This document shows, piece by piece, positions 2,606 to 44,212 of a DNA stretch of 44,212 nucleotides; position 1 is the first letter of the stretch, and every line of letters starts with the position of its first letter. The notes under the pieces were generated by a model. The model searched no databases and was not told the DNA's origin. It saw only the letters and a list, made by a program, of their open reading frames with translations. The DNA comes from Escherichia phage Henu5_1. The position numbers were made by a program, and so were the translations under genes. The stretch is from the sequence record PQ133007, one strand, 5' to 3'.

Positions 2606-2664
2606 ATTTTGCGCGCATTGGTTGCCATTTTGTGTGCTTTTAGCTGGTCGCATTGGTTGCCGTG

Positions 2665-2870
2665 TAGTGTGAATATAATGCATAGTTATGCAATAAAACT
2701 GCATAAAGTAAGCGGGACAAAAAGCGGGACAAACCATGGGCGGGACAAAGCGGGACGGCACCCCTGTCCCGCCCGGATGACGCGGCCTGGCGAGGAGCGG
2801 GACAGGCGGGACAACTCCCAGTCTTTCAGACTAGACGGGGGTCAACGGCCCCCCTCGTCTGAGACTGCAT
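2665..2870. repeat. Iteron array: 7 copies of GCGGGACA/TGTCCCGC plus conserved hairpin (copy 1 of duplicated module)
   Basis: GCGGGACA at about 2712, 2724, 2740, 2750, 2797, 2806 and inverted TGTCCCGC at 2765; about 80 percent identical to 19495-19690. Confidence 0.7.
2819..2867. promoter_or_regulatory. Conserved 49-nt imperfect palindrome / stem-loop (copy 1)
   Basis: cagtct...agacggggg-loop-cccccctcgtct...agactg; outer and inner stems complementary; no adjacent T-run so not a canonical intrinsic terminator. Confidence 0.5.
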
Positions 2871-3026
2871 AAAATCCGGGATTGCAAAATACACGGCAGC
2901 ATGTCGCGGATTGCGGTCGTCGCTGAACTAGGCAACCAATGCGAGATGCAGAAAGCGGTGTGGAAAATGCAGTTTGCAGTTGCAACGGATAGCGATCGAC
3001 TTTTTCATGCGCATGATTAATATTGG

Positions 3027-3055
3027 TTGCATTCGTGCCAGCACCCTGCTAGATT
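3027..3055 (+). promoter_or_regulatory. Putative sigma70-like promoter (TTGCAT-17-TAGATT) overlapping two ATTGGTTGCA motifs
   Basis: -35 TTGCAT lies inside ATTGGTTGCAT; second motif copy overlaps -10/+1; about 25 nt upstream of GGAGG RBS of ORF 3083. Confidence 0.4.
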
Positions 3056-3082
3056 GGTTGCACACCAACAGGAGGGCGGAAC

Positions 3083-3262
3083 ATGAAAACCGAAATGGTT
3101 GATAAGCACGAAATCAAGATCGGCGATACGGTAGTCCACAACGGGGAGCTTCGCACTGTGTGCAGGCGAGCGTTTAGCATCGATGAATTTATGGGCCTGC
3201 TACTTTGGGGCGACAGCTATCGTTTAGGGCATAAACTGGTTGAGAGGGTTACGGAACTATGA
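3083..3262 (+). CDS. Small hypothetical protein (59 aa, below ORF-track threshold)
   Basis: ATG at 3083 preceded by GGAGG RBS; hand-translated MKTEMVDKHEIKIGDTVVHNGELRTV...; stop overlaps next start (ATGA at 3259). Confidence 0.5.
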   Translation: MKTEMVDKHEIKIGDTVVHNGELRTVCRRAFSIDEFMGLLLWGDSYRLGHKLVERVTEL

Positions 3263-3450
3263 AAGCAATTATCTGGAATTACGCAATGGCTATGGCGGAG
3301 ATCCAGCCGTTGGCGAACGCTATCCAGGACTACGCGCTTGCATTTGCCCGTGAACGCCTGGCGTATCGCTTCGGAATCGGCGAGACGGCAGTGACAAACG
3401 TTGCCCGGATTAAAGCCCAGCGTGAGCTATTCGCCCAGCTTGCGAAATAA
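3259..3450 (+). CDS. Hypothetical early protein
   Basis: 63 aa track ORF; start overlaps upstream stop (ATGA). Confidence 0.55.
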   Translation: MKAIIWNYAMAMAEIQPLANAIQDYALAFARERLAYRFGIGETAVTNVARIKAQRELFAQLAK

Positions 3451-3459
3451 GAGGCCAAA

Positions 3460-3729
3460 ATGACCCGTAGACGCGCAAAACAGCTTTCGTGGCATATCCC
3501 CCTGCATTGCATACGAATATGGGCTAAGAATGCGAATGCGGGGGACTCTGTGTACTGGTGCTATCGCGACGACGTTAAGCCGTTGACGCAGACTCGCTAC
3601 TTGCACCAGTTCGCCGCGCAACATGATTTCTATGTGCGGACCTCCTTGCAACCAATGGGGATCCGTATTACATTACGCCGGAAGCCCGCAGTCGAGCGGG
3701 TAGGCAAACACTGGAGACTGAGCAAATGA
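3460..3729 (+). CDS. Hypothetical early protein
   Basis: 89 aa track ORF; AAGAGG RBS upstream of ATG 3460. Confidence 0.6.
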   Translation: MTRRRAKQLSWHIPLHCIRIWAKNANAGDSVYWCYRDDVKPLTQTRYLHQFAAQHDFYVRTSLQPMGIRITLRRKPAVERVGKHWRLSK

Positions 3730-3869
3730 CACCAGCACTAATGGCGGGATTCTCGCAGAAGTTTATTTCTGTTGATGCCTGCATAGCAGATTATGAGATG
3801 GACGGCATCGCTACTGTGTGCGATGGCGACACGAAAACTGCCGACGAGATTGAGGAGACAGAACAATGA
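3726..3869 (+). CDS. Small hypothetical acidic protein (47 aa, below threshold)
   Basis: ATG 3726 overlaps upstream stop and its own stop overlaps ATG 3866 (ATGA at both ends); hand-translated MTPALMAGFSQKFISVDACIADYEMDG... Confidence 0.45.
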   Translation: MTPALMAGFSQKFISVDACIADYEMDGIATVCDGDTKTADEIEETEQ

Positions 3870-4483
3870 AATTACTATTCCGCCGCAAGCATGATGGTCG
3901 CATCCTGAAGCCGATCCAGACCCTGGATTCCTACGTCCGCTTACAAAACGCGGCAGGCAATCGGGTGTGGCGGGCGCCGAAACACACGCTGCCGCAGTTC
4001 TTCGACGTACTCACTCACGATATCGAGCGCGGCGATGTGCTGCGTGATATTCGCGACGGCAGTATGTGGGTCGTCGAGTATGTCGGGCTTCATGGCCTGC
4101 GTATGCAAAACCGCAAGGATGGCGTCGCCGGTATGACTTACTTCGGCCTCGTAAATTACGAGCGAGTGGGTCGCAAATACAGCCTTCGTGACCGCCAGCC
4201 GCACGAGCGCGCGAACGTCATAGCGGATGCCGTTAACCGCGTAACGCATGATGTGGCGCAAAAGACGCGTGTGGAGTTCCGCAAGTCACAGCCAGCCTAT
4301 GCAACCTACGACGCGAGCAAAGTGATGGATCCGATACGCCAGGCGACGCATGCGATTATTAATCGCTTTGATGCCGTGACGAATGCACAGCGCCATGCGC
4401 AGGAATACGGTTTTGGATTCATCCGGGTGGAACGAGACGGCAGCATGAAAGCCATCGACCCGCGCTCGGTGATTCTGAAATGA
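3866..4483 (+). CDS. Hypothetical protein
   Basis: 205 aa track ORF, translationally coupled to neighbours. Confidence 0.65.
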   Translation: MKLLFRRKHDGRILKPIQTLDSYVRLQNAAGNRVWRAPKHTLPQFFDVLTHDIERGDVLRDIRDGSMWVVEYVGLHGLRMQNRKDGVAGMTYFGLVNYERVGRKYSLRDRQPHERANVIADAVNRVTHDVAQKTRVEFRKSQPAYATYDASKVMDPIRQATHAIINRFDAVTNAQRHAQEYGFGFIRVERDGSMKAIDPRSVILK

Positions 4484-4626
4484 GTGCGACGATCCGTGAT
4501 ATGCTTCAGCACAACCGCTTTGAGATAGGCGGTCGGGTATTTCGCAATTACTTCGTGGCGCGTGCATGGGCGCGCCATATTGGCAAACCGGAAGGGGCAA
4601 TTCGATGCTATACGTCTTCGCGGTAG
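4480..4626 (+). CDS. Small hypothetical protein (48 aa, below threshold)
   Basis: ATG 4480 overlaps stop of upstream gene (ATGA); hand-translated MSATIRDMLQHNRFEIGGRVFRNYFVARAW... Confidence 0.45.
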   Translation: MSATIRDMLQHNRFEIGGRVFRNYFVARAWARHIGKPEGAIRCYTSSR

Positions 4627-4706
4627 TATGTGGCGGTAGTCTGGCGGCCCTGGTGCTGTTGGCGTCGGTTATTAGTCTGGTTAAATACCTATGGGGCAGA
4701 TTATGA
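4605..4706 (+). CDS. Putative 33-aa hydrophobic membrane peptide
   Basis: ATG 4605 preceded by GAAGGGG RBS; hand-translated MLYVFAVVCGGSLAALVLLASVISLVKYLWGRL; stop overlaps ATG 4703. Confidence 0.35.
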   Translation: MLYVFAVVCGGSLAALVLLASVISLVKYLWGRL

Positions 4707-4990
4707 TTCATGATGTGATTTATTGGTTTGGTTTGATCTGGGGACTGTGCCTGCTTACTGTGGTGCTGTTGTGCCTCCTGATGTTCGTCGTATGGCCCGC
4801 CGTGGAAGCCGCCAGCATTACCCGCATGACGTTCGAAATATACAAGCGCCGTGGAATCACGGAGCACCCGACCAGGTTGCGCATGTGGTGGCTGTGGTAT
4901 CGGGATATGATAGGCGGGCGAACATTCGAAGCCGTCCGATCATCCGGGTGGGAGTGGAAAGGCGTCGGCAAGTGGTCCGTTTTCGATTAA
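4703..4990 (+). CDS. Membrane protein (single predicted TM helix)
   Basis: Track ORF 4691-4990; ATG 4703 preferred because it overlaps upstream stop (ATGA); hydrophobic N-terminal segment. Confidence 0.5.
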   Translation: MIHDVIYWFGLIWGLCLLTVVLLCLLMFVVWPAVEAASITRMTFEIYKRRGITEHPTRLRMWWLWYRDMIGGRTFEAVRSSGWEWKGVGKWSVFD

Positions 4991-5008
4991 TTATGCAAGC
5001 GTGATATA

Positions 5009-5042
5009 GTCCCAGTGAGCTAAAACTTACTGGGACTTTTTT
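5009..5042 (+). terminator. Rho-independent terminator
   Basis: 9-bp stem AGTCCCAGT/ACTGGGACT followed by TTTTTT, directly after stop at 4990. Confidence 0.6.
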
Positions 5043-5333
5043 ATGGATAAGCTAAACGAGTGGCTATTCGCCCTGGCATGTCTGGCGGGTGGCTTCGTAG
5101 GCGCACGCATTCATGGTGAGGCTACGAAGGGGCCGCTAAACTTCGTTTTGTATGTGGTAGTCGGCTTCCTGTGTGCCATATTTGGCGCACCGGCTATTGC
5201 CGAGTGGGCTGGTTTGTCGGGTGAGCGCACTGTCGCCGGTTTGGGCTTCGTAACCGCAATCTTCTGGATGCCAATCGCCGACCGGATCAGGGAGACTATT
5301 GCGTCGTTCCGACTTCCGGGGGGTGCAAAATGA
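5043..5333 (+). CDS. Holin-like membrane protein
   Basis: 96 aa with 2-3 hydrophobic helices, immediately upstream of lysozyme gene. Confidence 0.5.
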   Translation: MDKLNEWLFALACLAGGFVGARIHGEATKGPLNFVLYVVVGFLCAIFGAPAIAEWAGLSGERTVAGLGFVTAIFWMPIADRIRETIASFRLPGGAK

Positions 5334-5575
5334 TTATCTCCGTCCTGTTGTTTGTTATCATCGGGGCTTCGTCCCTGTTTAACGTGTATGCGCCGTCCGT
5401 CCAGGATGGCATTTTCGGTCGGGTGCTGTATCTGCTAACGGCAATGATCTGTATTATCGGACTGTTGCAAACAGGAGACGTATCTGATACCACCTGGACC
5501 GCGTTAATCTGGCTGTTTGCATTGCGCACCCTGCGTAATGCTGTTTTGAATGGGGTAAAACATGCGATTCAGTGA
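5330..5575 (+). CDS. Small membrane protein (holin/antiholin candidate)
   Basis: 81 aa, 2-3 hydrophobic segments, GGGGGG RBS, overlaps neighbours at both ends. Confidence 0.45.
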   Translation: MIISVLLFVIIGASSLFNVYAPSVQDGIFGRVLYLLTAMICIIGLLQTGDVSDTTWTALIWLFALRTLRNAVLNGVKHAIQ

Positions 5576-6053
5576 CAACGGTCTAAGATTCACGGCAGCA
5601 TGGGAGGCTTTCAGCCCGGTGCCGTATTTCGCGACCAAGAAAGAGCAGGCCCGCGGCCTGTACACCTGGGGTTATGGTCATACAGGCACTAATCCGCCTC
5701 GAAGCATTACCCGCGAGGAGGCGCTGGCACTGCTCAAGCGCGATGTGGCGTATGCCGAGGACTGGGTTAGCAAATACGCACATCCGAGCATTAACCAGGC
5801 GCAATTCGACGCGCTGGTGGATCTGGTAATCAACGCCGGTCCTGGTCCGATCGTACCTGATGACGTCGCGAATGATTTCGATGACGCTGTGCGGTTGGGC
5901 GACTGGGCGAAGGTCCGTGCTACGCTGCCGCTGTTCCGCAAGCAAGGCGGGGAAGTGCTTAAGGGTCTGGTACGCCGTGCAATCGGCAGACAGGCGTTGT
6001 TTGATGGTAAGCAGTGGGACGTTGCCGAGCGAATCGGTCGTAACGCAGCATAA
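5562..6053 (+). CDS. Endolysin (phage lysozyme, GH24-like)
   Basis: 163 aa; N-terminal region with E...GYGHT lysozyme-like motif; position after holin candidates. Confidence 0.7.
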   Translation: MRFSDNGLRFTAAWEAFSPVPYFATKKEQARGLYTWGYGHTGTNPPRSITREEALALLKRDVAYAEDWVSKYAHPSINQAQFDALVDLVINAGPGPIVPDDVANDFDDAVRLGDWAKVRATLPLFRKQGGEVLKGLVRRAIGRQALFDGKQWDVAERIGRNAA

Positions 6054-6069
6054 TACGAGGGGACACGAT

Positions 6070-6483
6070 ATGTTGAAAAGTATTCTTGATCATAATGCGG
6101 ACGCGCTTGCCGCACTGGCTAAAACCGAAGATCCTGACGCACGCGCTATCATCGCGGACACTATCAGCCACGCGGGGGTCTTCAATGCGAAGTTACCCAG
6201 CCCGCCGGAAAGTAAGCCGGTGGCAAGTGCGACCATAACCATCACCCCAGTGTCCGCCGCAGTTGGCGCGAAGGCCGCCGCTTCAGTTGCCGTCCTGCCA
6301 TCCGACGCAACTAACAAGGCCGGGGCGTGGGTGTCTGCAAACCCAGACTGTGCGGCAATCAATCAGGCTACCGGCGAAATCACAGCAAAATCGGAGGGTA
6401 GCGTCCACATCTTCTGGGTGGCATCCGATGGAGGCGGGGCGATGGCGTCCGCCATCTTCACCGTAACGGGAGCCGCAGAATAA
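6070..6483 (+). CDS. Ig-like (Big_2-type) domain protein
   Basis: In-frame ATG 6070 with GAGGGG RBS inside track ORF 5860-6483; C-terminal beta-rich segment resembles bacterial Ig-like domain. Confidence 0.5.
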   Translation: MLKSILDHNADALAALAKTEDPDARAIIADTISHAGVFNAKLPSPPESKPVASATITITPVSAAVGAKAAASVAVLPSDATNKAGAWVSANPDCAAINQATGEITAKSEGSVHIFWVASDGGGAMASAIFTVTGAAE

Positions 6484-6492
6484 AACCCAGCA

Positions 6493-6517
6493 AGCCCGGT
6501 TAATTCCGGGCTTTTTA
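6493..6517 (+). terminator. Rho-independent terminator
   Basis: AGCCCGG-TTAATT-CCGGGCT followed by TTTTT. Confidence 0.6.
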
Positions 6518-6521
6518 TTGC

Positions 6522-6552
6522 TTGACTTGCAACCAACATAGACGCCATACTG
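6522..6552 (+). promoter_or_regulatory. Putative promoter (TTGACT -35) with TGCAACCAAC motif in spacer
   Basis: TTGACT at 6522-6527; weak -10 CATACT; motif copies at 6527-6537 and about 6553-6561. Confidence 0.35.
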
Positions 6553-6580
6553 CGACCAATCAACGAGAGGAGTAATAAAG

Positions 6581-6661
6581 ATGGCACGTAAAGATATTTG
6601 GGTATTAGCGATCTGGACCACCGCGGCTTTTATCGGCATGGTTATTTGCGAATTGATATAG
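6581..6661 (+). CDS. Possible 26-aa hydrophobic peptide
   Basis: ATG 6581 with GAGAGGAG RBS; hand-translated MARKDIWVLAIWTTAAFIGMVICELI; very short, low confidence. Confidence 0.25.
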   Translation: MARKDIWVLAIWTTAAFIGMVICELI

Positions 6662-6674
6662 CCCGCCGCCATAC

Positions 6675-6700
6675 GGACCGTGGTATATTGTCCACGGTCC
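6675..6700. promoter_or_regulatory. Perfect 9-bp inverted repeat GGACCGTGG-N8-CCACGGTCC (operator-like)
   Basis: Palindrome with TATATT in the 8-nt spacer, 23 nt upstream of HTH-phosphoesterase gene start. Confidence 0.4.
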
Positions 6701-6722
6701 ACTAATCAGGAATTAATTAAAT

Positions 6723-7865
6723 ATGCACCCGCAAACTAAAATTACCGATGAGCAATTGATCGCAGAAATTCAGGCAGGGACTACGGTTAAAGAGATTGCG
6801 AAGAAATACGGGATTGCCCTGCGCAATGTCTATATGCGGAAAGCCCGCCTATCGAAAAAAGGAATTGGGCACGGCAACGATGCCGTAATCCGCAAGCGCG
6901 TTGCCGATGGCTTCGGCGTTAAGCGCGTATCGGCCCTGGTGCGCGGCAATGGCGAAGAGGTCATGTCGTGGGTCATCACTGAGCAGGACAAGGAGCGCCA
7001 ACTCGAAGCTATGCGCGCTGTTGTCGATGGCATGAACAGCGAAATCACACCGGCAGCGCCAGTAAAAGCCCCGCCAGTCCCGATCCAGGCGCTCGACTTG
7101 CTAAACCTGTACACCGTGTCAGACTTCCACCTGGGCATGTTGGCATGGGGCGAGGAGACTGGAGAAGACTGGGATATGGCGATCGCCGAAGACCTGTTCT
7201 ACCGCTGGTTTGTCGAAGCCTTCGCCCGCGCACCGGACGCAGGCACTGCCGTGATCAATATCCTCGGCGATATGGCGCACTTTGATAGCCTTGATGCCGT
7301 CACCCCCGCCAGCGGGCACGTACTGGATGCCGACACTCGATACCAGAAGTTGGTCCGCTATATGATACGCATGGTGCGCAACGTCGTAGACCTGGCGCTG
7401 CAAAAACACCATAAAGTCAAACTGCTAATCGTCCAGGGTAATCATGACGAGTCGGGCATGATTTGGCTTGCTGAGATGTTCAACACGCTGTACGAGAACG
7501 AGCCGCGCGTCGATGTGGATACGTCCCCGGACGTCTACAAAATGGTGCAGCACGGTAAGACCACGCTGTTTTTCCACCACGGGCACAAAGCGCGATTCGA
7601 TGCTATCGAGCAGGTTATGATCGCTAAATTCAGACAGGCGTTCGGGTCGAGCGAATACAGCTACGCGCACGTAGGTCATTTGCACCACCAGAAGATTGTC
7701 GAGTCTCGCAACATGATTGTTGAACAGCACCGGACGCTCGCAGCGAAAGACGCCTACGCCAGCCGCGGCGGCTGGATGAGCGGTCGCAGTGCCAACGTCA
7801 TTACCTACAGCGCCAACTACGGCGAAGTAGCGCGCTTAACCATTAGCCCGGAAATGTTGAAGTAA
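6723..7865 (+). CDS. HTH domain fused to calcineurin-like metallophosphoesterase
   Basis: N-terminal HTH-like TVKEIAKKYGIALRNVYMRKARL; phosphoesterase motifs DFH, GDMAHFD, GNHDE, HHGH, GHLHH. Confidence 0.6.
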   Translation: MHPQTKITDEQLIAEIQAGTTVKEIAKKYGIALRNVYMRKARLSKKGIGHGNDAVIRKRVADGFGVKRVSALVRGNGEEVMSWVITEQDKERQLEAMRAVVDGMNSEITPAAPVKAPPVPIQALDLLNLYTVSDFHLGMLAWGEETGEDWDMAIAEDLFYRWFVEAFARAPDAGTAVINILGDMAHFDSLDAVTPASGHVLDADTRYQKLVRYMIRMVRNVVDLALQKHHKVKLLIVQGNHDESGMIWLAEMFNTLYENEPRVDVDTSPDVYKMVQHGKTTLFFHHGHKARFDAIEQVMIAKFRQAFGSSEYSYAHVGHLHHQKIVESRNMIVEQHRTLAAKDAYASRGGWMSGRSANVITYSANYGEVARLTISPEMLK

Positions 7866-7870
7866 CGGCA

Positions 7871-7911
7871 ATAAGTAAGCCCCAGCCTGCCGATTTGGTG
7901 GGCTTTTTTGT
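7871..7911 (+). terminator. Possible weak terminator
   Basis: Short GC stem with large loop followed by TTTTTT. Confidence 0.35.
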
Positions 7912-7993
7912 GCCTGTTATAATCCACCTTAGATGGCAGGGCCGTCTCTTATGTTGCCGATGGTCGGCGCATATGAACAAAAGGGCTTATATC

Positions 7994-8545
7994 ATGGCAG
8001 AAATCAAAGTTAAGGGCCGACGCGCCAAACTGGACGGACGAGTAGCAGTAACCCCGCGCCGTAAACCAGGCGAGCAAACCGAGCACACCAATCTTGGACC
8101 TGAAATCGAGTACGGAAAGCGCCGTAAAGGCGGCAAATGCGGACGCCCTACTGACTACCGATCCGTTTACTGCGACCAGCTTCGCCGCTATTTTGCCGAC
8201 GCCGACGCCTGGCGGGTCAACTACTCCGATAAAGGCGCTGCGCAAGTAATCCCTCGCAACAAAATGCCAACCTTCGGTCGATTTGCCGCTGAAATCGGCG
8301 TAGGCGTCGCCTGCCTGTATCGATGGGCGCGTGCGCATGAGGAGTTTGCCGAGGCGATGGCGGACGCAATGGAACTGCAGAAAACCTTCCTGATGGAAGC
8401 TGGCGGCGTGACCATCGCGGCGGGCTTCGCTACATTCCTGCTTAAAGCAAACCACGGCGTCCGCGACGATGTACCGCTGGATGACGACGAAGATGATAAC
8501 GGTGACGTAGTTGTCGAACCTTCCGGCAAAGGCCAGGGTGAATAA
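7994..8545 (+). CDS. Terminase small subunit (putative)
   Basis: Immediately upstream of and overlapping terminase large subunit; HTH-like segment; acidic C-terminus; ATG 7994 chosen over track start 7895 on RBS grounds. Confidence 0.5.
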   Translation: MAEIKVKGRRAKLDGRVAVTPRRKPGEQTEHTNLGPEIEYGKRRKGGKCGRPTDYRSVYCDQLRRYFADADAWRVNYSDKGAAQVIPRNKMPTFGRFAAEIGVGVACLYRWARAHEEFAEAMADAMELQKTFLMEAGGVTIAAGFATFLLKANHGVRDDVPLDDDEDDNGDVVVEPSGKGQGE

Positions 8546-9930: not shown

Positions 9931-9941
9931 GGAAACCGACC

Positions 9942-12983: not shown

Positions 12984-12994
12984 TGGCCCCTTTT
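12972..12994. terminator. Bidirectional terminator hairpin
   Basis: AAGGGGCC-GTAAT-GGCCCCTT, with flanking T-run on the plus strand and A-run (T-run on minus); sits between convergent genes ending 12983 and 12997. Confidence 0.55.
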
Positions 12995-12996
12995 CG

Positions 12997-13761
12997 TTAT
13001 CGCGGAATGCCGCAAATCTCGTTGAGTGTTTTCACGTCCAGCGCCACTGCCGTGGATTTTGGCTTGTCCGGGTATGGGATGAATTGCTCAACTTCAGGCC
13101 ATGCCTTAATCAGCTTCTTGTCAGTATTGTGCAGGTCCAATACACCGGTAACGGTGAGTTTGAACGAATCATACTTCGCGCGCAACTCGCGACGGGCCTT
13201 GTCGTTGCGGTCCAGGCGCTTACAGAAGTCATGGTCCGCCGGGTAGTCTACGCGACCGCGTGGGAGATATATCGGCAGCGCTTTCCCGTCCTCGTCCACT
13301 TCGCACACTGACGCAAGCATAACCTCTTCGAACCCCGGTACGATATCGCCGAGATCGGGGGATAGCTTATTCATGTATTTATATTCCCAGTATCCGCGAT
13401 GTACGCGGTATCGGTAGCCGTCACCGCTCAAGGACAAGGTGCGAACATTTCCGCCTGCGTTGATTTCGAAAGCGGCGTCGTAAACGCTGCCGATACTTTT
13501 CGGGCGGTCGGTGTTATAACTATATGTCGCCTTGTTGGAGTAGACGCTGACGCCGTACATCTGCGACTGGTCATCGCGGATTAACAGGATATGCTCGCGT
13601 AGCGCGGCGAATGTGCGAATGCCGTCCGGCATACAGTCTAGCGTGATTGCGTACGCCAGGTCGCGAGAGTCCATCATAATTGTTTTGGCTTCGGTAGCGA
13701 TTTCGTGGTCGCGCAGGATGTTAGCCAGGATCTGATTTTTAATGTCTTTCGTCAGTCTCAT
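12997..13761 (-). CDS. Hypothetical protein, reverse-oriented gene inside the structural module (moron candidate)
   Basis: 254 aa from ATG at 13761 (GAGGA RBS) within track ORF 12997-13806; own promoter upstream; no recognisable motif. Confidence 0.6.
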   Translation of the reverse strand: MRLTKDIKNQILANILRDHEIATEAKTIMMDSRDLAYAITLDCMPDGIRTFAALREHILLIRDDQSQMYGVSVYSNKATYSYNTDRPKSIGSVYDAAFEINAGGNVRTLSLSGDGYRYRVHRGYWEYKYMNKLSPDLGDIVPGFEEVMLASVCEVDEDGKALPIYLPRGRVDYPADHDFCKRLDRNDKARRELRAKYDSFKLTVTGVLDLHNTDKKLIKAWPEVEQFIPYPDKPKSTAVALDVKTLNEICGIPR

Positions 13762-13790
13762 TTTTATGTCCTCGTTGTTGGTGTGCAACC

Positions 13791-13819
13791 AATATATTGC
13801 AACCAACCCCGCAATGCAA
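13791..13819 (-). promoter_or_regulatory. Putative promoter (TTGCAT-17-TATATT) with GCAACCAA motifs
   Basis: Minus-strand -35/-10 read from reverse complement; two motif copies at about 13784-13808. Confidence 0.4.
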
Positions 13820-19370: not shown

Positions 19371-19374
19371 CGAA

Positions 19375-19690
19375 GCGGGACAGGCGGGATGTCCCGTTTT
19401 GTCCCGCCACCATTAAACCGCATATATACTCACTTTCATTGCATAAACTAAAAGCGGGACGAGGGTGCTGTCCCGATCTGTCCCGCACCTTAAAAGTGAA
19501 TAGCTATGTGGTTTTTCTGCATAAAACAAACGGGACAGAAAGCGGGACAGAATGAGGCGGGACAAAGCGGGACAGCACCCCTGTCCCCGTCAGTGCTGCC
19601 GCGGGTTTTAGCCGATCGGGACAGGCGGGACAAAGCCCAGTCTTTCAGACTAGACGGGGGTCGATAGCCCCCCTCGTCTGAGACTGAATA
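19375..19690. repeat. GGGACA/TGTCCC repeat module (copy 2), about 12 copies plus conserved hairpin 19638-19686
   Basis: Direct and inverted GCGGGACA copies; 19495-19690 aligns with 2665-2870. Confidence 0.7.
19376..19400 (+). terminator. Rho-independent terminator built from GGGACA inverted repeat
   Basis: CGGGACA-GGCGGGA-TGTCCCG followed by TTTT directly after stop at 19370. Confidence 0.5.
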
Positions 19691-19754
19691 AGGTTTGTTT
19701 TAAATTCGCTGATACAATGACCGACGGCAACTGCATAAAAAGGGGGACTGCATA

Positions 19755-29593: not shown

Positions 29594-29611
29594 AAGCCCC
29601 TTTCGGGGCTT
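29594..29611. terminator. Bidirectional terminator hairpin
   Basis: AAGCCCC-TTTC-GGGGCTT between convergent genes; T-run on minus-strand side. Confidence 0.5.
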
Positions 29612-29828
29612 ATTTACAGGTTGTGCTTTTGAAGTGGTCAACCGACACATACTGGAAGTTGAAGGGGTATCCCGCCCGTAACATTTTATGACCGCTAACG
29701 TCTGCAACCCCAAACACAGGGACGGAATACTCCATACCACTATTCATGTATGTTGCGTCGCAGATTTTAGACGGCATGTCGGCACAACCAGCCAACAGAA
29801 CCGCACAAATCATAATTAAAGTTTTCAT
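29610..29828 (-). CDS. Small lipoprotein, superinfection-exclusion candidate (Cor/Llp-like by context)
   Basis: ATG at 29828 (GGAGA RBS); signal peptide MKTLIMICAVLLAGC with lipobox LAGC; 72 aa; opposite strand between receptor-binding tail genes. Confidence 0.55.
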   Translation of the reverse strand: MKTLIMICAVLLAGCADMPSKICDATYMNSGMEYSVPVFGVADVSGHKMLRAGYPFNFQYVSVDHFKSTTCK

Positions 29829-29858: not shown

Positions 29859-29887
29859 AGTATTGCACCGCTCAACCAAGAATGCAA
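29859..29887 (-). promoter_or_regulatory. Putative promoter (TTGCAT-17-AATACT) with ATTGGTTGCAT motif
   Basis: -35 formed by motif copy at 29882-29893 read on minus strand. Confidence 0.4.
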
Positions 29888-29908
29888 CCAATTCATGAGG
29901 ATTCAGCT

Positions 29909-32837: not shown

Positions 32838-32892
32838 AGTATTACCCTTTTTAGAGAGGGGGCTGTATTGCCCCCCGACACGTTTACTATAG

Positions 32893-32916
32893 TGCAACCA
32901 ACCTATTGGTTGCAAG
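32893..32916. promoter_or_regulatory. Palindromic double motif GCAACCAA-N4-TTGGTTGC
   Basis: Two motif copies as a perfect inverted repeat overlapping the 3' end of the HAD-like gene, upstream of gene 32837. Confidence 0.5.
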
Positions 32917-34511: not shown

Positions 34512-34530
34512 CGTGTTGTCTCCAGGTATT

Positions 34531-34556
34531 AAAAAGGGCGTCCAACCGGACACCCT
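34531..34556 (-). terminator. Terminator-like hairpin on minus strand
   Basis: Minus-strand RNA AGGGUGUCC-GGUU-GGACGCCCU followed by UUUUU. Confidence 0.4.
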
Positions 34557-34557
34557 C

Positions 34558-34586
34558 AATATAATGCAACCAATCTAGTTATGCAA
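34558..34586 (-). promoter_or_regulatory. Putative promoter (TTGCAT-17-TATATT) built on two ATTGGTTGCAT motifs
   Basis: -35 inside motif at 34581-34592; second motif 34564-34574 overlaps spacer and -10. Confidence 0.5.
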
Positions 34587-34590
34587 CCAA

Positions 34591-34914
34591 TTACGCATAA
34601 AAATTTGGGTCGCGCGCTACGTCTACCAGATACAGGTTACTAATGCGGTTGCCGTAGTGGCCTGGTGTGCGCTGACGGCACACTACGGCATAGCCTGGAG
34701 GGATTGTATTGCCAGTCTCAATAATCCACGCCACGCGTGCGCCAGACAGCGTCTTGCCGTTGCATTCGATACGAGTACCGCCATCGGCAGTATTGAGGTT
34801 GCCAATCTTGCAGCCGGTTGACTTCAGGCGGATAACGCCGGTCTTGCTGTCGTAGGAAAAAAGCTGATTGGTCATTGCCACTGAAAAGTCGATGGCGTCG
34901 AATGTAGTATTCAT
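34591..34914 (-). CDS. HNH homing-endonuclease-like protein (NUMOD4/HNH_3-like, possibly degenerate)
   Basis: N-terminal FSYDSKTG..IRLK motif and GNRISNLYLV resembling the DNR..NL element; catalytic His not obvious. Confidence 0.4.
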   Translation of the reverse strand: MNTTFDAIDFSVAMTNQLFSYDSKTGVIRLKSTGCKIGNLNTADGGTRIECNGKTLSGARVAWIIETGNTIPPGYAVVCRQRTPGHYGNRISNLYLVDVARDPNFYA

Positions 34915-37027: not shown

Positions 37028-37031
37028 ATCT

Positions 37032-37250
37032 TTATTCCGCCTTTTTCCAGACTTCTGTCTCACTGTTCCAGTTCCTTTTTGTAGCGTCGTAGTTGGTGGC
37101 GTGTCCGATGTGCACACCAGTCGCCCGGAAGCTCTTAAATTTTTGCCAGCACACCGTCAACGGCATCGGGTCATTCATGCCTGCAATAAACCATACGCGA
37201 TCGCCTGGTTTGCATTCGCCCAGCTTGGTGAGTCGGTAATGTTCTTTCAT
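37032..37250 (-). CDS. Small hypothetical protein
   Basis: ATG 37250 with GGGAGA RBS inside track ORF 37032-37265. Confidence 0.45.
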   Translation of the reverse strand: MKEHYRLTKLGECKPGDRVWFIAGMNDPMPLTVCWQKFKSFRATGVHIGHATNYDATKRNWNSETEVWKKAE

Positions 37251-37293
37251 CGTCATGTCTCCCAAAAATGGCGGGACAAGCCCGCCGTCTTAA

Positions 37294-37467
37294 TTATTTT
37301 TGCTCGGCGCGGTAGCGGCGCTGCCGTTCACGCTCTTTTTTATTTCGGCACGATTTGCACTCGGCCCGATACCCGTCGGGGCTGCGCGCGGTTTTGCCGG
37401 TGTATTTGTGGAACTGGGATAGCGGTTTAACACAACCGCAATTACTACAGCGTTTTTCTTCAACCAT
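37294..37467 (-). CDS. Small zinc-ribbon-like protein
   Basis: 57 aa from ATG 37467 (GAGGA RBS); CxxC...CxxC cysteine pairs. Confidence 0.45.
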   Translation of the reverse strand: MVEEKRCSNCGCVKPLSQFHKYTGKTARSPDGYRAECKSCRNKKERERQRRYRAEQK

Positions 37468-37507
37468 TTCTAAAATCCTCGATAGGGCTAACCTGCTAAC
37501 TATACTG

Positions 37508-37786
37508 TTAAGCGACCAATTCAGCAACCAATAAATCACAGTCGGCTATGCTGTCGATAACGCGAACGTCCGCACCGCGGCGGGCCATTCGCTCATGTTC
37601 TCGTACCTGGTGCGGCTTAGGTTTACCGCCTGGGCGCTTCACTTCGACGAAAACTATCTTGCCGTTGATGATGATTATAAGGTCGGGCGCTCCCGCGCGC
37701 CCCTCCCATGCCACTTTACGGCAGAATCCGCCGACGGCTTTAACCAACTTCATAAGGTGACTTTGGATCTTGCCTTCTGGTGTCAT
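37508..37786 (-). CDS. VRR-NUC domain nuclease
   Basis: GAPDLIIIINGKIVFVEVKRPGGKPKPHQ matches the PD-(D/E)xK VRR-NUC signature; start overlaps DNA polymerase stop. Confidence 0.6.
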   Translation of the reverse strand: MTPEGKIQSHLMKLVKAVGGFCRKVAWEGRAGAPDLIIIINGKIVFVEVKRPGGKPKPHQVREHERMARRGADVRVIDSIADCDLLVAELVA

Positions 37787-40077: not shown

Positions 40078-40244
40078 TGCTTAATCCTCACCACGGCGTC
40101 AGCACTGCCGATCATGGAGAAGATACCGTCGGAAAGGGTAATCTCCTCACCGTTGTTGCGAATCTCGGCAACTGTGAAATATTCGCCCAGCATTTTGGAC
40201 CATACTTGCATTCCGACTTTTACTTCGCTGGCTTTAATACGCAT
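40074..40244 (-). CDS. Small hypothetical protein (56 aa, below threshold), translationally coupled to DNA polymerase
   Basis: Hand-translated MRIKASEVKVGMQVWSKMLGEYFTVAEIRNNGEEITLSDGIFSMIGSADAVVRIKQ; stop overlaps polymerase ATG (ATGA); AGGA RBS. Confidence 0.4.
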   Translation of the reverse strand: MRIKASEVKVGMQVWSKMLGEYFTVAEIRNNGEEITLSDGIFSMIGSADAVVRIKQ

Positions 40245-40261
40245 TTTTCATTGTCCTATTA

Positions 40262-40284
40262 AAAAGCCCGCATTAAGCGGGCTT
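40262..40284 (-). terminator. Rho-independent terminator on minus strand
   Basis: Minus RNA AAGCCCGC-UUAA-UGCGGGCUU followed by UUUUU, downstream of gene 40303-41034. Confidence 0.5.
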
Positions 40285-40302
40285 GAATAGTGGGCTTTGC
40301 CC

Positions 40303-41034
40303 TTAACGGCGGCGACGTTTACGTGGTGCTTCGTCTTCGTCGTCTTCGTCCTCATCTTCGTCATCGCGTGGCTTTCGACGTTTACGAGGTTTCTCGTCTT
40401 CGTCATCATCGTCGTCATCGCGGCGCTTGGACTTTTTGGACTTGCGCGGGCTTTCATCTTCGTCATCGTTATCCAGGTCTTCGTCTGAGCACGAAGACCC
40501 GCCACCGCCGAAGGCTTCGCCGTCATCACGGAAGCGCAGACCCAAAAGACCAGCACCGAGTCCCTTGCCGTTGGTATTGTTCCACGCCCAGATATCGAGT
40601 GACACGTTGCAATAACAACCGGAGTAGATCTCCTGGCCTTCGATCTCGTCGCCTTCTACGGTCAGACCTTGTTCCGTCTGCTTCTCGCCGAGTGACGTTT
40701 GAATGATCGGCTGTTTGAACGATTTGGCGTTGATGTACAACATGCCTTCGAATTCTTCGGTTACTTCGTCGCGCTCGTCACCATCGCGAACTGCGCATTC
40801 CTTAGAATCCTGGGCGTAGTGGCGGTCCATCCACTTATCAGCATTCTTCTCGGATTTCAGCTTGTCGGTGAGCACTGCGCGCGCTGCCGCTTCCACTTTG
40901 TCCACCTGCGGATCTTCTTTATCCAGAAGAATCACTGCACGGTATGCCGGTTTTTGACCATCCTGTTTAGGGGTATCGCGTTCCCAAATTTTAAGGAAAC
41001 ATACGCGCACATTTTTCAGGTTGACTTTAGCCAT
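40303..41034 (-). CDS. Putative ssDNA-binding protein (DUF2815-like) with extreme acidic/basic C-terminal tail
   Basis: ATG 41034 with GAGGA RBS; N-terminus MAKVNLKNVRV; C-terminal 60 aa alternate D/E runs with KR clusters; family assignment from memory. Confidence 0.45.
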   Translation of the reverse strand: MAKVNLKNVRVCFLKIWERDTPKQDGQKPAYRAVILLDKEDPQVDKVEAAARAVLTDKLKSEKNADKWMDRHYAQDSKECAVRDGDERDEVTEEFEGMLYINAKSFKQPIIQTSLGEKQTEQGLTVEGDEIEGQEIYSGCYCNVSLDIWAWNNTNGKGLGAGLLGLRFRDDGEAFGGGGSSCSDEDLDNDDEDESPRKSKKSKRRDDDDDDEDEKPRKRRKPRDDEDEDEDDEDEAPRKRRRR

Positions 41035-41099
41035 TTTCCAATTCCTCATTTTCACATGTATCGGGGTTATTATGAGCCGCCCCGTTCGGCTTGGTTGCC

Positions 41100-41128
41100 A
41101 ATTTACTTGGTTGCGCCTAAGCGGTCAA
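41100..41128 (-). promoter_or_regulatory. Putative promoter (TTGACC-17-TAAATT) with CAACCAAG motifs
   Basis: Motif copies 41091-41100 and 41107-41115 in spacer and just downstream of -10. Confidence 0.4.
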
Positions 41129-41367
41129 GCACTTTCATTAAAAAGATTTCTGGTCACGTAGTTGATGGCGTTCTCGATCCAGCTTAACGGCGGTCGGTCG
41201 ATGTTCTTCTCCACCCAGTCGACGGCAGCGTCACTATAACCGTCATCCAGCCAGCGGGTCGGATGACGAATCATCCACGCCACCATTAACACGCCTTGCA
41301 CGCAATGCAGGATAAAGCCCAGCGCGCCGAGCAAAAACATCAATAAGATCGCAAATACTTTATTCAT
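41125..41367 (-). CDS. Small membrane protein
   Basis: 80 aa, hydrophobic N-terminal half; GAGGA RBS. Confidence 0.5.
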   Translation of the reverse strand: MNKVFAILLMFLLGALGFILHCVQGVLMVAWMIRHPTRWLDDGYSDAAVDWVEKNIDRPPLSWIENAINYVTRNLFNESA

Positions 41368-42790
41368 TGCTTAAGTCCTCGTCAGTGGCCTCCGACCACG
41401 CGGGGCGCGGGTCGTCGATAGGTGCTAACACCGGTTTAGCGGGTGCGCGTGTGATTTTAGCACACAGCTTCGCCCACACTTTCGGTTTTTCGTCCTTCAG
41501 TACCTTCTCGGCATCTGTCGGGCTGAGCAATGTTTCTTTGTACATCACATCGCGCTTGACCCGTGCCTTAGTGAAGATTTCAATCACTTCGCTCTCGTCC
41601 GCCCACTTACGGATCCCTTCCTTACCGGCAACCATCTTGAGGCCCAGCGATTCGCCATCGCCCGCCATGACCGCCTTGAATACCGCGGACTCGATAGCCT
41701 TGATGTGCTGGCGCATTGCGTCCAGACCTTCATAAGCCTTGCGCAGTTCCGCCGCGCTCATAGCGCCTGGTGTGGATTCCTTCTTGCCTCGTTTAGCACG
41801 TCGGGCAGCCTTCCTGGCTTCGCGGGCCATATTGCGATCGTGGTTGGCGCATTCTTCCTCGGTCGCCACGCTCACGTCGTCGCCCAGGTCTTCGTCGGTT
41901 GCCGTTGGTTGGGCCATCGTATCGATTGCAGCCTTAGCGCGGGCGCTACACTGATCCGCAAATCGGCACCACTGACACGCATCAACGCCCGGTCGGAAGT
42001 CGGCACGGGTGAGTCCTTTCTTACCGCGGGCGTACGCTTCCAGGGCGGCGATAGCACGCTTGGACGCAAACTTCGCGAATATCTCCAGGGCTTCTACCGA
42101 AATATCCCACTCTGACGCCCCGCCGCAATACGGCTGGAAGATAACCAGGCGCACCGTCGTAATGTCGTACATGGTTTTCAGCTTGCGCAGTAAGCCCAGC
42201 GCGTACAACATAAGCTGTTTGTTTTCTTTTGCCTCGACCTTATGCCGCCCGGTCTTCAGGTCGCCAACGATCAGCATGTACGTTCCGTCGGTCTTTTTCA
42301 TGACCATGACCATATCGGCAGTACCGAACGTTTTAATCCTGTTGCCGTCGACCTCGAAGCCAGAGTGTAGGACGCGGGTAAGATCGGCGCGCATCTCAAG
42401 CTGAACAAACTCCGCCACTTCGAGGAGCGGTCGCCAGTGGTCGATGTACGCATCGCACTGCTTCACCATATCGTCGTTGACCAGTACGCCGCCTTTCGGT
42501 GCTTTTGGGTGGGCCTTTACCGGCCCCCTGCCTTCGTTCTCGACGTAACATCCTTTATACGTCTTCGCGGTTATTTTCTTCTCACCGGCGATAATGCGGT
42601 TTAGCACCACTTCAGATACGGTGTGCATACTCGTACCGTTAATCGCGGCTTGCCCGGATTCGTTCGGGATATCTTTTTCTACCACCAGGGCGGCGGGACA
42701 CCCCATCCATTTTTTAGCACCGGATGGGCCAAGTAATGAGTGTTCCGTATTACTACCGGATTGCGTTTTACGTTTTGGTTTAATCGCCAT
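41360..42790 (-). CDS. PD-(D/E)xK exonuclease, Cas4-like with 4-Cys cluster (DUF2800-like)
   Basis: 476 aa; N-terminal Cys (MGCPA) and C-terminal C-x2-C-x5-C (DACQWCRFADQC) typical of Cas4/RecB-family Fe-S nucleases. Confidence 0.6.
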   Translation of the reverse strand: MAIKPKRKTQSGSNTEHSLLGPSGAKKWMGCPAALVVEKDIPNESGQAAINGTSMHTVSEVVLNRIIAGEKKITAKTYKGCYVENEGRGPVKAHPKAPKGGVLVNDDMVKQCDAYIDHWRPLLEVAEFVQLEMRADLTRVLHSGFEVDGNRIKTFGTADMVMVMKKTDGTYMLIVGDLKTGRHKVEAKENKQLMLYALGLLRKLKTMYDITTVRLVIFQPYCGGASEWDISVEALEIFAKFASKRAIAALEAYARGKKGLTRADFRPGVDACQWCRFADQCSARAKAAIDTMAQPTATDEDLGDDVSVATEEECANHDRNMAREARKAARRAKRGKKESTPGAMSAAELRKAYEGLDAMRQHIKAIESAVFKAVMAGDGESLGLKMVAGKEGIRKWADESEVIEIFTKARVKRDVMYKETLLSPTDAEKVLKDEKPKVWAKLCAKITRAPAKPVLAPIDDPRPAWSEATDEDLSNE

Positions 42791-42969
42791 TATTCCACCC
42801 GTGTAAACTGGACAATTACATATTTCACATTTGCCAGGCCAGCTTTTTCGACTCGGCGCTTAACTTCATTTTGCGCGTCCACAAAGCAATTGCTTGCGTT
42901 GGTGTTTTCAACAATAAAAGAAGTGTGATCGTTTAATTCGTGGCATGTTGCCAGGACGAAGAATTTCAT
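42790..42969 (-). CDS. Small hypothetical protein (59 aa)
   Basis: ATG 42969 overlaps upstream stop (TAATG); within track ORF 42790-42984. Confidence 0.4.
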   Translation of the reverse strand: MKFFVLATCHELNDHTSFIVENTNASNCFVDAQNEVKRRVEKAGLANVKYVIVQFTRVE

Positions 42970-43220
42970 TATTTCGTCTCCCATCGGTCAATTGTTTTTG
43001 CTTCGGATGCAACTGCGAAGCGAACATATTCCAGGTTGGAATCGGCCCAAATATAAAAGTCTGGATTGGTAAAGGTGGTGCGCTTAATTTGCGCGGGTGT
43101 AGTGCGGCGTTTATCAATTACGGCAACGCGTGACTGAAAGCTGCCGATGCGTTCGAATAGCCAATAGTACGGGCGCTGGTCGCGGGAATCCACCGCCTCG
43201 ATTAGCGTGAAGCGTGCCAT
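42969..43220 (-). CDS. Hypothetical protein
   Basis: 83 aa, ATG 43220 with GAGGA RBS. Confidence 0.55.
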   Translation of the reverse strand: MARFTLIEAVDSRDQRPYYWLFERIGSFQSRVAVIDKRRTTPAQIKRTTFTNPDFYIWADSNLEYVRFAVASEAKTIDRWETK

Positions 43221-43231
43221 TGTCTCGTCCT

Positions 43232-43260
43232 CTAAAAATAGGCCCGCTAATCTGCGGGCC
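43232..43260 (-). terminator. Terminator-like hairpin on minus strand
   Basis: GGCCCGC-AGAUUA-GCGGGCC followed by U-rich tract, after stop of gene 43269-43811. Confidence 0.45.
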
Positions 43261-43268
43261 GGATAATA

Positions 43269-43811
43269 TTAATCTTCCAGTTCGAAATACGTTTCTACGA
43301 TTTCTTTCAATTCGGTGTGGAAGTCCGCCACGTCGTCGTCTTCCAGTTTAGCGATTGATTTGATCTCGAACGATTCCAGCAGGTCGTCGAATTCGTCGTT
43401 CGCATCATCATCATCGCCGCCTGCGATAATAGCGGCATACTGTTTGATTTCGTCGCGCATCTCTGCCAGCGGGTCGGCATCTTTCTTACCTTTGCCTTTC
43501 GCTGGTGCTTTTTTACCCTTCGCCGGTTTTTCGTCTTCGGCTTCATCATCCTCGTCGTCATCCTCTACGACTTCTTTTTTGGCCTTTCCTTTAGACTTGG
43601 TTTCTTTTGCCGCGCCTTTTTTCGCCTTTGGCGTATCTTCGACTTCGTCCTGATCGTCGTCTTCGACTTCGGTCTCCGGCTTGGCCTTGCCTTTCTTAGC
43701 GGTGCCGTTTGCTTTTTGGTCTACGGCAGCGCCCACAGTTTCATAATGTTTAGCGATGGTTTCCAGTGCTACTACGCCGCGAGTGATCAGGTTTACGATT
43801 TGCTCAAACAT
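43269..43811 (-). CDS. Lys/Asp/Glu-rich low-complexity protein, first gene of minus arm
   Basis: ATG 43811 with GGAGA RBS inside track ORF 43269-44039; alternating K-rich and D/E-rich blocks, strongly acidic C-terminus. Confidence 0.55.
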   Translation of the reverse strand: MFEQIVNLITRGVVALETIAKHYETVGAAVDQKANGTAKKGKAKPETEVEDDDQDEVEDTPKAKKGAAKETKSKGKAKKEVVEDDDEDDEAEDEKPAKGKKAPAKGKGKKDADPLAEMRDEIKQYAAIIAGGDDDDANDEFDDLLESFEIKSIAKLEDDDVADFHTELKEIVETYFELED

Positions 43812-44007
43812 GGTATATCTCCGATTGGTTAAGTTTAGGTGTCGACCATTAACTTCGTCGGTGGCCTTAACATAGAGCCAGGTTACGCGTTCTCCCTTTC
43901 GGGTAGTGGACCTGGTTATATAATCACGGTTGGGAATCCTGACACTTCGATCCGGCCCCTGCGTTGCCCCTCTCCAGTTTGCGTACTGCATCCTGTCGAC
44001 GAGGTGA

Positions 44008-44036
44008 ATATTAGATTGGTTGCAGAAGGGAGTCAA
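44008..44036 (-). promoter_or_regulatory. Strong sigma70-like promoter (TTGACT-17-TAATAT) for the minus arm
   Basis: Near-consensus hexamers with 17-bp spacer containing TGCAACCAAT; about 200 nt upstream of ATG 43811. Confidence 0.5.
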
Positions 44037-44046
44037 CAACTAATTT

Positions 44047-44081
44047 AAAAAAAAAAGCGCCGAAGCAAAATGCGACGGCGC
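44047..44081 (-). terminator. Rho-independent terminator on minus strand
   Basis: A10 run on plus strand (U10 on minus) adjacent to imperfect 10-bp GC stem. Confidence 0.5.
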
Positions 44082-44152
44082 TAACCAATAAGAGACAATG
44101 AGACGGGAGTTATTATTACACGCGTGCGCGCCCGTTTCAATATCCAAAGGAT

Positions 44153-44181
44153 TTGACACCGTGCAGTTTTGGGTGTAGTTT
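44153..44181 (+). promoter_or_regulatory. Putative promoter (TTGACA-17-TAGTTT) reading toward the window end
   Basis: Consensus -35 TTGACA; followed by palindrome GTTGGT-N5-ACCAAC and GAGGG RBS at the last bases of the window. Confidence 0.3.
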
Positions 44182-44212
44182 CGTTGGTCATTAACCAACT
44201 GAGGGCAGAGCA

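Follow-up and report, generated by a model that had tools for sequence, protein, structure and literature searches.

In phage lambda, Cro, a small helix-turn-helix (HTH) protein that represses early promoters in the lytic phase, is encoded at divergent promoters by the gene that opens the rightward early operon, ahead of the replication genes. Its operators (OR and OL) are 17-bp dyads at two loci and overlap the -35 and -10 elements of early promoters, including that of the regulator itself. The temperate phage P1 encodes C1, an immunity repressor of 283 amino acids whose asymmetric 17-bp operators are scattered over the genome; several of them lie over promoters and some are paired. In phage T4, the MotA box replaces the -35 element at middle promoters. 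The repressors of cluster A mycobacteriophages (L5-type) use short asymmetric sites present in tens of copies, mostly in short intergenic regions and in some cases on early promoters, and these stoperators have been described as elongation-stopping sites (PMC9283540, PMC6550527). Here we analyzed a repeated 9-10 bp box in Escherichia phage Henu5_1 (sequence record PQ133007). The window, meaning the whole 44,212-bp stretch of DNA that was analyzed, is a complete Dhillonvirus genome (HK578/SO-1-like E. coli siphophage). The box coincides with ten predicted sigma70-like promoters and may be the operator of a 109-amino-acid HTH protein encoded at window positions 1-330.

The arrangement is most easily compared with that of lambda Cro. 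A small HTH gene again opens the rightward early operon at divergent promoters and is followed by replication genes, and the proposed sites overlap the -35 and -10 elements of early promoters, the regulator's own included, as far as these promoters can be predicted from sequence and conservation. Unlike the lambda operators, the box is asymmetric, is only 9-10 bp long, occurs mostly as direct repeats at about 11 loci and is not the inverted repeat expected for a symmetric HTH dimer. The protein, with its 109 amino acids and a long helix, was not found to belong to the Cro/CI family (HTH_3/XRE), and the phage has neither a CI partner nor a lysogeny module. As with P1 C1, a single regulator would have many scattered asymmetric sites, several overlapping promoters and some paired, but the box is much shorter than the 17-bp P1 operators and no homology to C1 was detected. 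The box shares with the L5-type stoperators its asymmetry, its many copies genome-wide and its mainly intergenic location. It differs from them in its mixed orientation and in that nearly all copies coincide with promoter cores and not with stretches inside transcription units at a distance from promoters; host and life style (no integrase was seen) are unrelated. The protein appears unrelated to gp71, the monomeric two-domain repressor of that system; Pfam, PHROG, and PDB searches with it gave generic HTH matches only. Like the T4 MotA box, it replaces a good -35 element in a fixed register at four of the promoters described below (A, B, D, and E), whereas elsewhere it is inverted, or lies in spacers, on -10 elements, or on start sites, so that it has neither one position nor one orientation. 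Pfam and PHROG scans that covered the small and unassigned proteins revealed no MotA or AsiA homologue.

Results

We counted the box in the window and compared its frequency with that expected by chance. The exact 9-mer GCAACCAAT/ATTGGTTGC is present in 14 copies on both strands, against 0.47 on average, and never more than 2, in dinucleotide shuffles, and 30 matches were found when one mismatch was allowed (12.5 expected). The 8-mer core TTGGTTGC occurs 20 times. Fifteen of these copies are intergenic (binomial p = 2e-13), although only 7.7% of the genome is non-coding in our gene map, for which the annotation of the relative YD-2008.s was carried over by tblastn and two corrections were made. 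The remaining copies comprise two at the extreme ends of genes and three internal to coding sequence. Under an order-1 Markov model, 0.2 intergenic and 1.8 coding copies of the core are expected; the internal coding copies are therefore at chance level, while the intergenic ones are about 75-fold over-represented. The original prediction of a repeated, mostly intergenic 9-10 bp motif thus held up, also once composition was corrected for in coding DNA.

Exact copies of the 9-mer start at positions 2617, 2652, 2932, 3022, 3053, 13785, 29884, 32905, 34566, 34583, 37524, and 44015, with two further ones in coding DNA at 3648 and 24427. Copies with one mismatch start at 6529, 6552, 13799, 32894, 37512, 41090, and 41106. 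All the positions listed beforehand were recovered to within 1-2 nt, and the two coding copies and the copy at 6552 were added to them. In an unbiased k-mer count, TTGGTTGC was the sole abundant and mainly intergenic 8-mer besides an unrelated repeat, GCGGGACA. Alignment of 17 non-coding and gene-end sites yielded a-TTGGTTGC-a, with no information in the flanks beyond. The element is an asymmetric 9-10 bp box, aTTGGTTGCa, whose position matrix contains no second half-site.

Relative to the local direction of transcription, 12 boxes are in the sense and 7 in the antisense orientation. The occurrence of both orientations argues for recognition at the DNA level. When neighboring boxes were compared across 13 genomes or loci, 76 of 82 pairs, spaced 9-37 bp apart, were direct repeats. 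With most copies of the asymmetric box arranged as direct repeats, the sites do not form a classical dyad operator; palindromic variants (TTGGT-N5-ACCAA) were found at three promoters only. These palindromes could point to a host transcription factor that reads the box and ties early transcription to host physiology, as the TTGGT...ACCAA half-sites recall operators of the GntR/FadR type, such as that of PdhR. However, the N5 spacing and the predominance of single or directly repeated sites do not fit a PdhR-type N3 dyad, and we know of no E. coli factor with the consensus of the box. A 51-nt double-box promoter had no match in 5,426 E. coli genomes, which is weak evidence given the short query. 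Moreover, the box co-occurs with the phage HTH gene in every sampled lineage. We regard a host factor as highly improbable.

To follow the box through related phages, we compared six complete relatives with 80-94% identity (YD-2008.s, LM40P1, WFI, bob, rolling, and SO-1). Each of them contains 18-23 copies of TTGGTTGC. Across all intergenic regions of at least 40 nt, identity to the window was 96.2% at box positions, 90.1% at the predicted promoter hexamers and 71.8% at the other intergenic positions, which bears out the conservation of the motif at orthologous promoters. In the alignments, the boxes appear as invariant islands amid drifting intergenic sequence. At promoter A, for example, both boxes and the 17-nt length of the spacer are unchanged, but most relatives differ from the window in the spacer sequence. 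Several -10 hexamers differ between relatives in their third base (TAGATT/TATATT; TAAATT/TAGATT/TACATT), which is the least constrained position of the sigma70 -10 element. The box is a real, intergenic element that coincides with conserved promoter hexamers, and no intergenic feature is better conserved across the six relatives. Site turnover was seen in LM40P1, in which promoters E and F have gained a perfect direct pair of boxes 17 bp apart.

Homologues of the small HTH protein led to three more distant metagenomic lineages (L007, L009, and L010). In L007 and L010, the helicase-primase is just 66-68% identical to that of the window and many accessory genes are swapped. TTGGTTGC is again the commonest intergenic 8-mer in all three lineages, and 10-12 of the 13-14 copies in L007 and L010 are intergenic. 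When IMG/VR was scanned for pairs of boxes separated by 1-10 bp, at least 120 stretches were returned, mostly from unrelated contigs and tandem repeats, and the pattern was too unspecific to show the distribution outside Dhillonvirus.

Ten predicted sigma70-like promoters carry boxes; four of them were detected by a consensus scan and six more by string search. Each lies upstream of an operon and consists of a -35-like and a -10-like hexamer separated by 16-18 bp; the spacers are constant in length and variable in sequence. Jointly, the ten head all non-structural operons (replication, modification, and accessory genes, on both strands) as well as two opposite-strand genes inserted in the structural block. 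This block (~7.9-29.6 kb) is without an intergenic box except at the promoters of these two genes (C and E). The proposal that the box marks intergenic promoters is thus supported at ten conserved predicted promoters and fails for three boxes, at 2617, 2652, and 2932. All promoter-associated boxes lie between -40 and +12 relative to the inferred -10 element, and each promoter has at least one box at -29 to +12. Sites between -35 and +20 of E. coli promoters are typical of repressors. That the boxes fall in this zone is the strongest argument in favor of repression.

The promoters can be grouped into two classes. In class 1 (A-F), a box in sense orientation (inverted at promoter F) supplies a weak -35 hexamer (TTGCAT, TTGCTG, or TTGCAA), and the spacer, the -10 element or the start site carries another. 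Promoter A (TTGCAT-17-TAGATT, 3027-3055, plus strand) takes its -35 from the box at 3022-3030, a second box at 3053-3061 overlaps the -10 element and the start site, and the genes from orf59 through the lysis genes lie behind it. At promoter B (TTGCAT-17-TATATT, 34586-34558, minus strand), which precedes YD09, Dam, and a PNK-like gene, the box at 34583-34591 gives the -35 and another at 34566-34574 fills the spacer to 2 nt before the -10 element. Promoter C (TTGCAT-17-TATATT, 13819-13791, minus strand) has a box in the spacer (13799-13807) and one over the last 3 nt of the -10 element and the start site (13785-13793), while its TTGCAT lacks the ATTGG part. It precedes the opposite-strand Nmad5 gene (13000-13761, minus strand; nucleotide-modification-associated domain 5, Pfam E 5e-59). 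The hexamer pair TTGCAT-17-TATATT, which had been assigned to promoters A, B, and C alike, is present at the latter two, both on the minus strand, and is replaced at promoter A by the TAGATT variant.

Promoter D (TTGCTG-17-TATAGT, 37527-37499, minus strand) overlaps the 3' end of the VRR-NUC gene and precedes Lar-like, SNF2 helicase, Dcm, and HNH genes; its -35 comes from the box at 37524-37532, and the box at 37512-37520 (ATTGGTCGC) is in the spacer. At promoter E (TTGCAT-17-AATACT, 29887-29859, minus strand), the box at 29884-29892 coincides with the -35 and a degenerate second copy, cTTGGTTGAg, lies in the spacer; in LM40P1 this second copy is a perfect ATTGGTTGCAC abutting TATATT. The gene behind it is cor (superinfection exclusion; 29610-29828, minus strand). 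Promoter F (TTGCAA-18-TATAGT, 32915-32886, minus strand) obtains its -35 from an inverted box (32905-32913), and a box in sense orientation (32894-32902) stops 2 nt short of the -10 element, the two together forming GCAACCAAT-AG-GTTGGTTGC. In LM40P1, a sense copy 17 bp upstream takes the place of the inverted copy.

In class 2 (G, H, I, and the promoter of the HTH gene), a good TTGAC[ATC] -35 hexamer is present and the box is inverted, lying in the spacer and/or directly 3' of the -10 element. Promoter G (TTGACC-17-TAAATT, 41128-41100, minus strand), in front of the SSB and DNA polymerase genes, has two inverted boxes (GCAACCAAG), one in the spacer abutting the -10 element (41106-41114) and one just 3' of it (41090-41098). 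Promoter H (TTGACT-17-TAATAT, 44036-44008, minus strand) heads the leftward early operon and has the inverted box GCAACCAAT at 44015-44023 in its spacer. This box is invariant in the six relatives amid a varying spacer, and L007 and L010 have two tandem boxes there. Promoter I (TTGACT-18-CATACT, 6522-6551, plus strand) has inverted boxes just after the -35 (6529-6537) and just after the -10 element (6552-6560), and precedes a 26-amino-acid open reading frame (ORF) and the gene of a 380-amino-acid phosphoesterase. Inverted boxes in TTGAC-type promoters had been noted before at G, H, and I, and all three were found again. The promoter of the HTH gene itself (TTGACA-17-TAGTTT, 44153-44181, plus strand) is followed by the palindrome GTTGGTCATTAACCAAC at 44183-44199 (about -5 to +12), which had likewise been recognized as related to the box.

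An eleventh, internal promoter (TTGCAA-17-TACATT, 3646-3674, plus strand) may exist on the coding box at 3648-3656, at the 3' end of the gene at 3460-3729. This box is identical in all six relatives while neighboring wobble positions vary, an observation that is confounded by coding constraint.

The class 1 promoters also bear on a different explanation, in which the box is a positive promoter element and a phage factor, possibly the same HTH protein, bound at -40 to -32 replaces or helps sigma70 region 4, as at T4 MotA/AsiA middle promoters or with a class II activator; copies in the strong TTGAC promoters would then be negative or incidental. Promoters A, B, D, and E share one register, with the TTGC of the box at -35 to -32. 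Their TTGCAT or TTGCTG matches TTGACA at only 3 of 6 positions, and the consensus scan misses all four. Promoter F and the 3646 site receive TTGCAA from an inverted box, and the 109-amino-acid protein matches Sigma70_r4_2 above the Pfam cut-off. However, the second box of the same promoters overlies the spacer, the -10 element or the start site, and a protein bound there should obstruct RNA polymerase; the four promoters with a good TTGAC hexamer have the box only in the spacer or 3' of the -10 element, in the opposite orientation. The incomplete box at the -35 of promoter C and the absence of MotA/AsiA matches from the Pfam and PHROG scans speak against it as well. We consider a mainly activating box unlikely.

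The candidate for a repressor acting at these sites is the 109-amino-acid protein. Its gene (1-330, plus strand) is the first of the rightward early operon, lies at the divergent promoter region and is directly upstream of the helicase-primase gene. Residues 65-105 match HTH_23, HTH_28, and Sigma70_r4_2 above the Pfam cut-offs, and no other protein had HTH matches above curated cut-offs among the small and unassigned proteins and those of the larger ones that were checked against Pfam and PHROG. HTH_3 is matched with 17.7 bits (E 0.0037), short of its cut-off of 23. A confident AlphaFold2 model (pLDDT, the predicted local distance difference test, 84) consists of a short helix, a 59-residue helix (21-79) and a terminal HTH. 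Fold and sequence searches of the PDB with this model returned generic HTH proteins only (LuxR/GerE, resolvase, IstA, and sigma region 4; all E > 0.7), the sole sequence match was a designed repeat protein, and no family could be assigned.

Across 19 homologues, there is hardly any variation in residues 47-106, which include the recognition helix STVRSWVRN, while the N-terminal 45 amino acids are entirely different in some lineages. A profile-guided search of viral contigs found homologues in Dhillonvirus-like contigs only. In every lineage, a site lies directly 3' of the -10 element of the regulator's promoter; it is a degenerate palindrome in the lineage of the window and a perfect GCAACCAAT in L007 and L010. 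We regard the palindrome GTTGGTCATTAACCAAC as a putative autoregulatory site. In public records the protein is named "transposase" (SO-1, YD-2008.s, and PHROG 9366) or "DNA recombination nuclease inhibitor gamma" (bob and rolling), and we found no support for either name.

Another protein might read the box instead, either the N-terminal HTH-like segment (ITDEQLIAEIQAGTTVKEIAKKYGIALRNVYMRKARL) of the 380-amino-acid metallophosphoesterase (6723-7865, plus strand; "DNA repair exonuclease / calcineurin-like phosphoesterase") or an unrecognized small phage protein. The first 50 residues of the phosphoesterase give weak matches to GerE, HTH_28, and HTH_7 (E 0.003-0.02), its orthologue is labeled a putative transcriptional regulator in the SO-1 record, and its gene follows promoter I, which carries boxes. 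For about 20 small ORFs, the Pfam and PHROG scans gave no assignable fold. The HTH matches of the phosphoesterase are nevertheless below every Pfam cut-off, and its gene is missing from L007, L010, L025, L011, and L015, which span the syntenic lysis-to-terminase interval and keep 10-14 boxes. On this pattern of presence and absence we rejected the phosphoesterase, and we think it very unlikely overall that the binder is a protein other than the 109-amino-acid one. The gene of the 380-amino-acid protein is dispensable, being absent from several close and distant relatives. The 26-amino-acid hydrophobic ORF directly behind promoter I (6581-6661; MARKDIWVLAIWTTAAFIGMVICELI) is conserved, has a strong ribosome-binding site and is unannotated in the relatives whose annotation was inspected.

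The densest cluster of boxes, five in 445 bp (2617-3061), is located directly downstream of the HTH and helicase-primase genes. Three of its boxes, those of region B (2617-2625 and 2652-2660, sense; 2932-2940, inverted), are conserved and share a special flank, CGCATTGGTTGCC. They bracket an array of the iteron GCGGGACA and a hairpin just 3' of the helicase-primase gene, and rolling, bob, and LM40P1 have one extra upstream copy of the box in this region. The repeat GCGGGACA itself is present in 15 copies, 14 of them intergenic, in two arrays (2700-2890 and 19371-19700). Both arrays end in the same hairpin of ~60 nt, CCCAGTCTTTCAGACTAGACGGGGGTC...GCCCCCCTCGTCTGAGACTG, and their equivalents are annotated as repeat regions A and B in the SO-1 GenBank record. 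The two-site layout of the iterons recalls ori/crr of phage P4, and the iteron regions may act as an origin or as a helicase-primase site. In L010, the iteron is changed to (A)RCGGTGCC(A) while TTGGTTGC, the HTH, and the layout are the same, and the iteron and the box therefore represent two separate recognition systems.

The cluster raises the question of whether the box is mainly a replication or origin-organizing site comparable to a DnaA box, where the protein would bind the clusters around the iterons and assemble an initiation complex, with the promoter copies secondary and coupling early transcription to replication. The bracketing of an iteron/hairpin region flagged as a repeat region in SO-1, the region-B boxes with a flank of their own and no promoter, and the retention of the layout in L010 despite its changed iteron would all fit such a role. 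On the other hand, at least 15 sites are found outside region B, each on a promoter core, and the second iteron region (19371-19700) contains no box. We judge a primary role in replication to be quite improbable.

Regarding the genome as a whole, the window is 91-94% identical over almost its full length to PC2, YD-2008.s, SSL-2009a, SO-1, and ~150 others. A rightward block (1 to ~31.7 kb, plus strand) contains the small HTH gene, the helicase-primase gene, accessory and lysis genes, the phosphoesterase gene, and the terminase and structural genes; a leftward block (31.7-43.8 kb, minus strand) contains replication, recombination, and DNA-modification genes. At the Nmad5 locus, YD-2008.s has an extra hypothetical gene (EpYD_35) between the promoter C region and the Nmad5 gene, which has no counterpart in the window, and rolling and SO-1 have an additional opposite-strand gene annotated as DNA polymerase III beta subunit / RusA-like resolvase. 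Neither an Rfam nor a tRNA scan of the complete window returned a match; the box and the neighboring repeats are not part of a known RNA family.

Several further features were found in the control region. The 5' leader of the leftward early operon contains a 52-nt stretch (43924-43975) that shares 92-94% identity with unannotated intergenic DNA of T1-like Drexlerviridae, including Salmonella phage slyngel, the E. coli phages ityhuna and tunus, and others, which are otherwise unrelated at the DNA level. The 190-nt leader 3' of promoter H folds no better than shuffled sequences (z = 0.19) and has no Rfam match. The best consensus promoter of the control region, TTGAAA-17-AATAAT with a TG extension, runs from 44140 to 44112 on the minus strand. 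A strong terminator hairpin, GCGCCG...CGGCGC (~44084-44059), is found ~25 nt past its -10 element and is followed by ten T (~44058-44049). All six close relatives and L009 share this whole promoter-terminator unit (44046-44140), and its sequence suggests a transcript of ~50-60 nt containing ATTGGTTAGC.

Discussion

Our preferred reading is that the box is an asymmetric operator of the 109-amino-acid protein, which would act as a Cro-like repressor and autoregulator. We hold this to be plausible, with the balance of probability about even. Host sigma70 RNA polymerase would start at the approximately ten promoters that head the replication, DNA-modification, and accessory operons, the regulator's own among them, and the HTH protein would accumulate from its own strong promoter. 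It would then occupy the one or two boxes of each promoter, at the -35, in the spacer, on the -10 element or on the start site, and exclude RNA polymerase, leading to autoregulation and to a general turn-down of early and middle non-structural transcription. The three region-B boxes beside the helicase-primase gene may couple this control to a putative origin. That a protein binds the box, that the binder is the product of 1-330, and that the effect is repression are what we infer. The original prediction of an operator for a phage-encoded regulator of early and middle promoters is supported by the enrichment, the conservation, the overlap with the promoter hexamers, and a candidate protein that has a site at its own promoter, and none of the computational tests that might have refuted it did so.

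Several points weigh against this reading. The main reservation is the arrangement of the sites, since a symmetric coiled-coil HTH dimer is expected to prefer inverted repeats: the paired sites are nearly all direct repeats, and their spacings are many (9, 12, 13, 14, 16, 17, 23, 31, and 35 bp). Eight invariant bases are long for a single three-helix HTH. At six promoters, the box provides the only -35-like hexamer (TTGCAw, matching at 3-4 of 6 positions) in a fixed register, and an activating or recruiting function, or a dual role, therefore fits as well. The boxes of region B are at no recognizable sigma70 promoter. The HTH domain is 83-85% conserved between lineages, which is not above the DNA polymerase or SSB, and covariation between protein and motif is uninformative, as the HTH and the box both never change. 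Small ORFs of unassigned fold could include the real binder, and searches of the Dhillonvirus literature brought up no binding, transcript, or timing data.

A further possibility, which we consider rather unlikely, is that the 109-amino-acid protein is a dual-purpose organizer, acting either as a region-4-like module docking to RNA polymerase or as a DnaA-like factor. If the former were true, polymerase would be redirected to promoters with ATTGGTTGCAw as "-35" while the TTGAC promoters are shut, a one-protein switch from early to middle transcription that would amount to sigma appropriation in a siphophage. If the latter were true, the 9-bp boxes would assemble an origin beside the helicase-primase gene and also set early transcription.

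A search of the literature, including Dhillonvirus papers, found no mention of the box, of these promoters or of the function of the regulator. We regard the system as an undescribed instance of a familiar phage control circuit, useful rather than conceptually surprising. Much of the work on anti-phage defence uses Dhillonviruses, among them SECphi4, SECphi18, and several BASEL phages, as test phages. The promoter map gives a basis for interpreting the timing of defence triggers, and together with the operator and the candidate regulator it offers a handle for engineering, such as tunable or insulated promoters and a conditional early shut-off. The results on the 109-amino-acid protein also call for a correction of its annotation. 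If the preferred reading is true, Dhillonviruses would be a further example of virulent phages that keep a Cro-like circuit with dispersed asymmetric operators.

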